NCBI RefSeq assembly: GCF_022846255.1
Contig: NZ_AP025682.1
DNA length: 64,000 bases
DNA from: Escherichia coli
GTDB lineage: Bacteria > Pseudomonadota > Gammaproteobacteria > Enterobacterales > Enterobacteriaceae
Strand: one strand, 5' to 3'
Shown here: piece after piece, positions 31,785 through 32,729 of the stretch
Layout of the letters: each line of letters opens with the position of its first letter
How positions within the stretch are numbered: position 1 is the first letter of the stretch
Notes under the pieces: model-generated
Told to the model about the DNA's origin: nothing
Seen by the model: only the letters and a program-made list of their open reading frames with translations
Databases searched by the model: none
Made by a program: the position numbers and the translations under genes

Positions 31785-31818
31785 GTTCTGCCTGTTTAAA
31801 TACAGTGAGTTATGTGCT

Positions 31819-31860
31819 CTTGTAGGTCGGATAAGACGCCTCAGCGTCGCATCCGACATT
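31819..31860. repeat. REP element between lfgG and lfgH
   Basis: GTAGGTCGGATAAGACGCCTCAGCGTCGCATCCGACAT. Confidence 0.55.
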
Positions 31861-31865
31861 TCGCC

Positions 31866-32651
31866 TTACAGCGTCTGGCTGATGTACTGCAACATATCGT
31901 CCGCTGCTGACACCATTTTGGCGTTCATCTCGTACGCGCGTTGCACCGTAATCATCGCCACCATTTCGTTGACGATATCCACGTTCGAGCCTTCGAGCGC
32001 GTTGTCCTGCAAGGTGCCAAGCCCATCTTCGCCCGGCACGCCTTCGGTCGGCTGACCGCTGGCGGCGGTTTCCAGATAGAGGTTGTCGCCCTCGGCGGAA
32101 AGCCCCGCCGGGTTGGCGAAGTTCACCAGCGTCAGTTGCCCTAACTCGGTCACGTCGCTGTCGCCGGGTAAGATCGCCGTCACCGTACCGTCCTCACCAA
32201 ACGCGACGTTGGTCGCCCCCGCCGGAACGTCGATTTCCGGCTGCAACGGCAAGCCCTGCGAGTTGGTCAGTACGCCGTCAGCGTTCACCTGCAAGTTGCC
32301 GTCGCGGGTATAAGCGATATCGCCGTTGGCCTTTTGCACCTGCAAAAATCCCAGCCCCATAATGGCGACATTCATCGCGTTGTCGGTGGTTTCGACGTTG
32401 CCTTCGGTGAAGGTTTTCTGAGTGCCGACAATGCGTACGCCGCTACCGAATTGCAGCCCGGTCGGCATAATGTTGTTCTGATCGAGCATCGCGCCCGGCG
32501 CTTCCTGGGTCTGGTAAAACAGATCCTGAAACATCACCCGGTCGCGCTTAAAGCCTGTGGTGTTAACGTTGGCGATGTTGTTGGCAATCGCGCTCATTTC
32601 AGCATCCTGCGCTGAGAGGCCGGTTTTGCTGATCCATAGTGCTGCGTTCAT
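31866..32651 (-). CDS. lfgG: Distal rod protein LfgG (FlgG-like), 261 aa
   Basis: Conserved rod/hook N-terminus (ISKTGLSAQDAEMSAIANNIANVNTTGFK) and C-terminus. Confidence 0.9.
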   Translation of the reverse strand: MNAALWISKTGLSAQDAEMSAIANNIANVNTTGFKRDRVMFQDLFYQTQEAPGAMLDQNNIMPTGLQFGSGVRIVGTQKTFTEGNVETTDNAMNVAIMGLGFLQVQKANGDIAYTRDGNLQVNADGVLTNSQGLPLQPEIDVPAGATNVAFGEDGTVTAILPGDSDVTELGQLTLVNFANPAGLSAEGDNLYLETAASGQPTEGVPGEDGLGTLQDNALEGSNVDIVNEMVAMITVQRAYEMNAKMVSAADDMLQYISQTL

Positions 32652-32686
32652 GGTGGTAAATTCCGTGTTATTTTTTGGCCGCGGTT

Positions 32687-32720
32687 GCCGGATGCGGCGT
32701 GAACGCCTTATCCGACCTAC
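32687..32720. repeat. REP element between lfgF and lfgG
   Basis: GCCGGATGCGGCGTGAACGCCTTATCCGACCTAC. Confidence 0.6.
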
Positions 32721-32729
32721 GATGTGCGG

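Follow-up and report, generated by a model that had tools for sequence, protein, structure and literature searches.

Single REP hairpins at two junctions of the rod operon in an Escherichia coli Flag-2 locus, and repeat turnover in flagellar spacers

A 64,000-nucleotide (nt) stretch of Escherichia coli DNA (contig NZ_AP025682.1), referred to here as the window, contains the lateral-flagella-type Flag-2 locus with its lfg rod operon. Two spacers of this operon, between lfgG and lfgH and between lfgF and lfgG, each hold a repetitive extragenic palindromic (REP) element, which we call REP1 and REP2, respectively (Table 1). Both are genuine non-coding single REPs of the genome-wide E. coli family, and both are part of a turnover in which short palindromic repeats land, expand, replace one another and vanish in permissive spacers. 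The best explanation for their presence, which we hold to be probable, is that REP2 is a recent, near-neutral insertion and that REP1 sits in an older hairpin slot, where it may exert a modest post-transcriptional effect.

REP1 and REP2 in the lfg rod operon

The REP consensus used here is a ~35-nt imperfect palindrome, GCC(G/T)GATGCG(G/A)CG...CG(C/T)CTTATC(C/A)GGCCTAC. A degenerate search with this consensus finds REP1 and gave 0 matches in 100 dinucleotide shuffles of the window, and an arm-motif scan detects REP1 (- strand) and REP2 (+ strand), each with both arms. As read in the mRNA, REP2 is inverted (GUAGGUCGGAUAAGGCG...), and we take it to be a Y-type REP; both elements have the GTAG/CTAC end. 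Folded as mRNA (- strand), REP1 reaches -20.4 kcal/mol (z = -4.0) and REP2 -18.2 kcal/mol (z = -3.6), with 0 of 200 shuffles as good in either case. An outer CCGC/GCGG helix around REP2 begins directly after the lfgF stop codon. Consensus, arm motifs and folding are all in accordance with the original prediction, made from the letters of the window alone, of classical REPs at 31819..31860 and 32687..32720. Among 5,426 complete E. coli genomes, 5,424 contain matches to the REP2 stretch at megablast stringency (median, 10 places per genome), which identifies this stretch as a dispersed repeat.

The gene order proA...dinB-lafU...lfhA-yafL-yafK-yafJ-gmhA is that of the known Flag-2 site. The flanking genes frsA, gpt and pepD show 99.8% identity to E. 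coli; the Flag-2 genes of the window, which are present in ~1,274 of the 5,426 complete genomes, are 92-98% identical to their counterparts in other E. coli strains. The minus strand carries every gene in the lfgE-lfgI part of the window. Most neighbouring genes of the lfgB-lfgJ string overlap or lie at most 25 nt apart, and the only two spacers longer than this, lfgF/lfgG (78 nt) and lfgG/lfgH (81 nt), each hold one canonical REP. Both spacers lie within this string, so the predicted placement of the two REPs in intercistronic gaps of the rod operon is correct. Judging from gene order, REP1 and REP2 are probably co-transcribed with the lfg genes.

Both REPs are extragenic, between coding sequences confirmed by NCBIfam, and start 8-13 nt past the upstream stop codon. 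The stem of REP1 lies 8 nt past the lfgG stop codon, and the distance from the lfgF stop codon is 9 nt to REP2 as a whole and 13 nt to its core stem. On the other side, 37 nt separate the end of REP1 from the lfgH start codon, and ~35 nt including the ribosome-binding region are left between each REP and the next start codon. Because the tails after these stable hairpins (CCUACAAGAGC and AACCGCGGCC) lack a U-tract, the two REPs are not intrinsic terminators, and Rho-independent termination was rejected for both. A consensus scan of the - strand revealed nothing resembling a terminator or a sigma-70 promoter in the two spacers, and on this ground the reading of the spacers as sigma-70 promoters was discarded as well. 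A bacterial interspersed mosaic element (BIME) consists of at least two alternating REPs; the two junctions in the window have a single REP apiece. An Rfam scan of the window at gathering thresholds reported neither junction REP as naRNA4 (RF02564) and no general REP family; naRNA4 alone was matched, at another site.

REP1 has a consequence for the annotation of lfgH. The longest open reading frame (ORF) of this gene spans 31119-31859, and its 25 upstream codons (MSDATLRRLIRPTRAHNSLYLNRQN) run through REP1, a point already made in the original prediction and borne out by translation of 31785-31859. This longer ORF was rejected, as the extension is REP1 read as protein and is not covered by the FlgH profile. 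The start is the GTG at 31784, which had been proposed together with a lipobox: the product carries LSGC in its N-terminus, its residues 2-221 align with positions 1-220 of the 220 in profile NF009072, and the same 666-nt coding sequence is given in the PGAP annotation of five other strains. Longest-ORF callers will add 25 REP-encoded residues to LfgH.

Table 1. Repeats, spacers and genes in the window (window coordinates)
Feature	Position	Strand	Details
REP1, single REP GTCGGATGCGACGCTGAGGCGTCTTATCCGACCTAC, sense orientation in mRNA	31822-31857	-	consensus match, 2 mismatches
lfgG/lfgH spacer, host of REP1	31785-31865		81 nt
REP2, single REP GCCGGATGCGGCGTGAACGCCTTATCCGACCTAC	32687-32720	+	arm motifs with 0 and 1 mismatches
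lfgF/lfgG spacer, host of REP2	32652-32729		78 nt
Extended RNA structure around REP2	32679-32729	-	86-nt fold, -23.4 kcal/mol
Spurious N-terminal extension of lfgH (MSDATLRRLIRPT...)	31785-31859	-	outside FlgH profile match
lfgI	30004-31119	-	FlgI, NCBIfam score above curated cut-off
lfgH, L-ring lipoprotein (FlgH), 221 aa	31119-31784	-	NF009072, 432 bits
lfgG, distal rod protein (FlgG), 261 aa	31866-32651	-	TIGR02488, 350 bits, cut-off 252.75
lfgF, proximal rod protein (FlgF family), 245 aa	32730-33467	-	NCBIfam NF009280, 317.5 bits, cut-off 210
lfgE	33467-34669	-	FlgE, NCBIfam score above curated cut-off
lfgD/lfgE spacer, 23 nt, empty in window	34670-34692	-	ORF coordinates
REP, 9 nt downstream of lafA flagellin stop codon	23843-23874	+	arm motifs; flagellin Pfam domains
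Single REP between convergent genes (25233-26126 +, 26185-27162 -)	26142-26178	+	arm motifs
BIME, two opposite REPs (41485-41514, 41531-41563)	41485-41563	.	arm motifs
BIME, two REPs, naRNA4 family	48581-48663	.	Rfam RF02564, 79 bits, gathering 59.5
GC-rich dispersed palindromic repeat GCCCTCTCCC...GGGAGAGGGTTAGGGTGAGGGG	38869-38996	.	blastn 83-85% to L004 and L011 spacer elements

Repeat turnover in flagellar spacers

Spacer lengths were determined in a systematic sample of 59 Flag-2-positive genomes (of ~1,274), using queries in which the gene ends were joined and the spacer was removed. The lfgF/lfgG (F/G) spacer measures 78 nt with one REP in 47 of the 59 genomes (~80%), 178 nt with three alternating REPs, a BIME, in seven (~12%), and 26 nt without any REP in five (~9%). 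In addition, 124 records in the 90-95% identity band are consistent with a frequency of ~10% for the empty F/G allele. Because this allele (TGATAACAGACACCAGGGAATAAAGCACCATG) is similar to the 30-nt Citrobacter spacer in the ribosome-binding region, it looks ancestral.

The lfgG/lfgH (G/H) spacer is more varied. One REP within 82-83 nt is found in 38 of the 59 genomes, and a 70-nt form (three genomes) has a REP with a 12-nt internal deletion, whose hairpin still folds to -15.6 kcal/mol. In the 202-203-nt form (ten genomes) the REP is duplicated around a 101-nt element. A GC-rich palindromic repeat, of a family that we take to be boxC-like, stands in place of the REP once in the 206-nt and twice in the 271-nt form (four genomes each); such a repeat takes the place of REP1 in ~10% of strains. 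No empty G/H allele occurred among the 59 sampled genomes. In E. coli the 101-nt element occurs as a single copy per genome, in 205 genomes (~16% of those with Flag-2), and is thus not a dispersed repeat.

Alleles with the 101-nt element read CCTTGTAGGCACGATAAG...GTGGACGG...CCGTCCAC...GCACACGCTTGTT; they lie at 886-1087 of locus L002, 3287-3490 of L012 and 3287-3754 of L013, homologous to window 31785-31865. Escherichia sp. MOD1-EC7003 has three tandem copies of the element alternating with REP halves in a 468-nt spacer.

A third junction of the operon varies as well. Strain AF16 has a four-REP BIME in a 261-nt lfgD/lfgE (D/E) spacer (L001 5072-5332), and blastn found a similar insertion in an ST131 strain (L005) and in locus L009. 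The primary flagellar operon (flag-1) offers a parallel. In K-12, flgBCDEFGHIJ carries a canonical REP (-25.6 kcal/mol) in the flgF/flgG spacer, at the paralogous proximal-rod/distal-rod junction and of the same type and orientation to the transcript as REP2. Like REP2 it is strain-polymorphic, being present in 37 of the 59 sampled genomes, and it is exchangeable with a boxC-like repeat, which O157:H7 has in its place. We take O157:H7 to be a motile lineage, so that motile lineages manage without the flag-1 F/G REP. Unlike in Flag-2, the K-12 spacer is 171 nt long and its REP lies 93 nt from the flgF stop codon, and the proteins of the two systems are merely 41-48% identical, which makes the REP insertions in flag-1 and Flag-2 independent. 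The K-12 flgG stop codon is directly followed by a -15 kcal/mol hairpin and then a T-rich stretch. Taken together, the D/E, F/G, G/H and flag-1 flgF/flgG spacers all differ between strains by repeat turnover.

Beyond E. coli, species-representative genomes were scanned with LfgG, yielding 80 loci, of which 76, from distinct species, were measurable. Loci at 62-100% LfgG identity were regarded as flag-2 loci, because K-12 FlgG is merely 48% identical to LfgG (FlgH is 36% identical to LfgH); those at 83% or above form the near clade. In 62 of the 76 loci the F/G spacer spans only 11-33 nt and has no structure, and E. coli-type F/G REPs are confined to six Escherichia-like loci. These six comprise loci of Escherichia species and of three records with the label Pseudocitrobacter or Citrobacter, whose loci share 93-97% DNA identity with the window. 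The three records (L008, Pseudocitrobacter vendiensis; L009, Citrobacter sp. HRGM_Genome_0066; L011, Pseudocitrobacter faecalis) have E. coli-type REPs at the same junctions, which suggests either recent horizontal transfer or mislabelled or contaminated assemblies.

The G/H spacer gives a different picture. In 20 of the 22 near-clade loci it is 50-468 nt long and contains a hairpin, as it does, at 39 nt or more, in 11 of the 54 distant loci. In a shuffle test restricted to G/H spacers of 39-110 nt, 20 of 25 fold better than 95% of shuffles. The original prediction had looked to the same junctions in other lateral flagellar loci; there, a hairpin at G/H is recovered throughout most of the near clade, and a REP at F/G is found in Escherichia-like loci only.

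The G/H hairpins belong to many unrelated sequence families, and most of them start within 16 nt of the lfgG stop codon. Besides the E. coli REP and the boxC-like repeat, they include GCCGGAT...ATCCGGC in Citrobacter, GGNGGCCAC...GTGGTCNCC in L022, L025 and L029, GGGCCGCG...CGCGGCC in L028 and L030, GGGCGGAAG...CTTCCGCCC in six Pantoea/Erwinia-type loci, and several singletons. The Citrobacter hairpin aligns in register with REP1, with a common GAAATG(C/T)CGGAT prefix and AACAGGCAGAACGTG suffix, and is by this alignment taken as positionally homologous to it. One base pair changes in a compensatory manner between L022, L025 and L029 (G:C, U:A, C:G), and further changes of this kind run from C:G to A:U and from C:G to U:A (Citrobacter vs E. 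coli). Drawn from 3-7 sequences, these pair changes are no more than suggestive.

Possible roles of the hairpins

The comparisons across strains and species point to different histories for the two elements. REP2 appears to have been inserted recently, in the Escherichia lineage only, and to have little or no required function. REP1 appears to fill an older hairpin slot after the distal-rod gene, one that is filled in most close flag-2 relatives, and its effect is most likely post-transcriptional and modest. A functional hairpin that separates rod from ring expression would thus find some support in the comparative data at G/H and no support at F/G; REP2 separates two rod genes, not rod from ring. 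Transcribed REP hairpins are barriers to 3'-to-5' mRNA decay (PMC12306157, citing Newbury 1987). By blocking 3'-to-5' exonucleases, the REP1 hairpin would allow the lfgB-G segment, which encodes axial proteins of the flagellar type III export pathway, to outlast the lfgH-J segment with its Sec-exported ring proteins. Given its short distance from the stop codon, the hairpin may also slow the termination of ribosomes on lfgG, which would counteract this effect.

In K-12 flag-1, levels measured by RT-PCR exceeded those of housekeeping genes 2-3-fold for flgF and flgG and fell below them for flgI and flgJ (PMC4376774). These values are compatible with a step-down after flgG without proving one. 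The Term-seq supplements of PMC7815308, in which no flg or fli entry appears, supply no 3' ends for the K-12 flag-1 REP.

Several points weigh against a function of the hairpin after lfgG. The G/H spacer is 8-38 nt long and without a hairpin in 45 of the 76 flag-2 loci, so a working system can dispense with it. The recurrence of hairpins could be a mere insertion bias of palindromic repeats just past stop codons, in a spacer where they are tolerated. The Citrobacter hairpins are themselves REP-like, and the few compensatory changes could stem from replacement by other repeat copies, not from selection in place. Moreover, the two proposed effects, stabilisation of the upstream mRNA and reduced upstream translation, act in opposite directions.

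A purely neutral reading is therefore a serious rival, and we consider it a real possibility, albeit a minority one. It holds that both REPs are selfish or junk insertions, copies of a dispersed repeat in tolerant sites, with no measurable effect on lfg expression. The polymorphism at every spacer, in presence, copy number, internal deletion and replacement, is in line with it, as are the like polymorphism in the functional flag-1 operon (with O157:H7 motile in spite of lacking the REP), the absence of the F/G REP outside Escherichia-like loci and the flag-2 loci devoid of a G/H hairpin. Neutrality is harder to reconcile with the G/H spacer, which is empty in 0 of 59 sampled E. coli genomes as against ~9% for F/G, whose hairpin survives deletion and replacement events, and which is structured in nearly all near-clade species despite unrelated sequences. 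In addition, transcribed REP hairpins are documented to influence both decay and translation (PMC12306157).

According to the summary of Liang et al. 2015 in PMC12306157, REPs less than 16 nt from a stop codon lower translation of the upstream gene through ribosome stalling, a rule said to cover 260 of 496 REPs. The two REPs could then be chiefly translational down-regulators, at which ribosomes stall, mRNA is cleaved and tmRNA tags the products, so that less LfgG (REP1) and LfgF (REP2) is made; we judge this unlikely. The spacing speaks for it: REP1, at 8 nt, and REP2, at 9-13 nt and with its outer helix from +1, fall within the quoted distance, and the same holds for most G/H hairpins of other genera. 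In flag-1 the REP is 93 nt from the flgF stop codon, so this parallel does not fit, and the distance rule is taken from a summary from which the exact definition may differ. By analogy with the published class, the effect would also be opposite in direction to a stabilising one upstream.

Attenuation is less plausible still. Transcriptional attenuation by REP/BIME hairpins has been reported (PMC12306157), and Rho-dependent or BIME-type attenuation would leave fewer lfgH-J transcripts; alternatively, a terminator could be combined with a separate lfgH promoter. An orthologous spacer (L028) does have a hairpin followed by a T-run, as the K-12 flgG/flgH spacer has one followed by its T-rich stretch. 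We nevertheless regard this reading as improbable, given that both REPs lack a U-tract, that the consensus scan detected neither terminator-like nor sigma-70 promoter-like sites, and that no sigma-54 or sigma-28 consensus was seen by reading between REP1 and the lfgH ribosome-binding site. Attenuation has moreover been described for multi-REP BIMEs, and the junctions here have a single REP each.

A role at the DNA level is very improbable; in this reading the REPs would bind gyrase or nucleoid proteins and thereby relieve supercoiling or help to organise the flagellar locus (38 kb). Protein binding is described for multi-REP BIMEs and not for single REPs, and sequence-specific binding is hard to square with the unrelated hairpins that take the place of the REP in other strains and genera. 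In its favour, REPs have been linked to DNA topology and nucleoid structure (PMC12306157), and the locus includes one BIME that matches naRNA4, a nucleoid-associated family.

The reading that we prefer, with REP2 near-neutral and REP1 in an older hairpin slot, can be extended into a broader and distinctly more doubtful proposal. Enterobacterial rod/hook operons might keep a selected hairpin slot after lfgG/flgG, filled in each lineage by its active palindromic repeat. If so, the slot would be located at the boundary of type III-exported axial and Sec-exported L/P-ring proteins. Structure, not sequence, would set an mRNA or translation step between both protein classes, and mobile repeats would have been recruited again and again for the same regulatory job.

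Other repeats in the window and comparison with known systems

Further REPs had been predicted at 23844, 26142, 41485 and 48585, and the arm-motif scan found all four. The accompanying claim that Flag-2 is unusually rich in REPs is not supported statistically. The Flag-2 region (~38.7 kb) contains six REP loci with eight REP units, compared with 2.96 loci expected from the 355 in EcoCyc (PMC12306157) per 4.64 Mb (Poisson P = 0.08) and 4.1 units expected from the 496 REPs of Liang et al. (P = 0.06). This roughly two-fold excess, in a region chosen after seeing the data, is not significant, and for the whole 64-kb window 4.89 loci are expected against six (P = 0.37).

On the 3' side of lafA, in the mRNA sense, the REP comes first and a terminator-like hairpin (AACACCGCC-tgcg-GGCGGTGTT, 23814-23837) follows, which places the REP inside the 3' untranslated region, upstream of the terminator. 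The BIME at 41485-41563 separates convergent glycosyltransferase and cytidylyltransferase-like genes. The naRNA4 match covers 48584-48660 of the BIME at 48581-48663, which is located where lafK (start 48456, -) and a + gene starting at 48843 diverge. REPs are usually found at gene 3' ends, and this position is thus unusual. The lafK ORF is only 328 aa long and opens directly with the sigma-54 interaction domain. The boxC-like repeat at 38869-38996 lies between a gene ending at 38851 and one starting near 38958, and overlaps the listed GTG start of an 838-aa ORF. Its family is dispersed (4,191 E. coli genomes, median of 3 places each) and also occurs at L004 886-1091, L006 520-790 and L091 251-387.

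No gene for the REP-associated tyrosine transposase (RAYT), rayT, was found in the window. In K-12 the one rayT gene (L090 3638-4135) is flanked by yafL and the lfhA pseudogene and borders the Flag-2 deletion scar; in the window, only a 97-nt gap without rayT separates lfhA from yafL (55073-55169). With rayT not beside Flag-2 in this strain, there is no basis here for proposing local seeding of REPs by an adjacent RAYT. The dinJ-yafQ toxin-antitoxin pair is absent between yafL and yafK/dpaA (window 55929-56230). The lfgJ/lfgK spacer (29500-29704, 205 nt) has no REP. In flag-1, flgKL is driven by a class 3 promoter, and by likeness to it this spacer may hold a separate lfgKL promoter. Two features unrelated to the REPs are a tRNA gene beside proA (5318-5390), probably thrW from its position, and an Rfam match to the small-RNA candidate IS009 (197 bits) at 3874-4074.

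REPs between cistrons have been known since 1982 (Higgins 1982, as cited in PMC12306157). They are a textbook feature of E. coli, and their presence here is unsurprising; the recurrent hairpin after lfgG is the sole mildly interesting lead. The flag-2 comparative paper PMC6993521 makes no mention of palindromes, repeats or intergenic regions, and a literature search for lfgF, lfgG and lfgH returned no relevant paper and none on lfgG or lfgH transcripts. The Flag-2 REP instance and its allelic series therefore appear to be undescribed so far. REP1 and REP2 are not in the EcoCyc REP list because the Flag-2 locus is not in K-12. The series is a natural one at three junctions of one operon, with a parallel series in flag-1, and spans empty spacers, one REP, three REPs, an internally deleted REP, a REP with the 101-nt element and the boxC-like replacement. 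It could be used to ask whether REP-type hairpins tune intra-operon expression or are neutral passengers; the G/H site also keeps a hairpin across genera.

Among known systems, REP1 and REP2 are reminiscent of the intercistronic REPs of operons such as malE-malF and hisJ-hisQ (Higgins 1982; Newbury 1987, both as cited in PMC12306157). They share the consensus of a ~35-nt imperfect palindrome with terminal GTAG/CTAC, an extragenic position between cistrons of one operon and a hairpin without a U-tract, and, like classical REPs generally, they are dispersed in hundreds of copies. In contrast to malE-malF and hisJ-hisQ, each Flag-2 junction has one REP and not a pair, and it is known here from sequence. 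The class of Liang, Rudd and Deutscher 2015, with nrdAB as an example, is alike in starting at most 15 nt past the upstream stop codon; its published examples, as far as summarised, are K-12 genes with a reported effect, whereas the likeness here is one of spacing. REPs upstream of fliH in the flagellar paper on P. putida provide a loose analogy only. BIMEs differ from the single junction REPs of the window, yet they correspond to other alleles of the same spacers, with a three-REP F/G spacer in ~12% of strains and a four-REP D/E spacer in AF16, and to the two-REP sites at 41485-41563 and 48581-48663.

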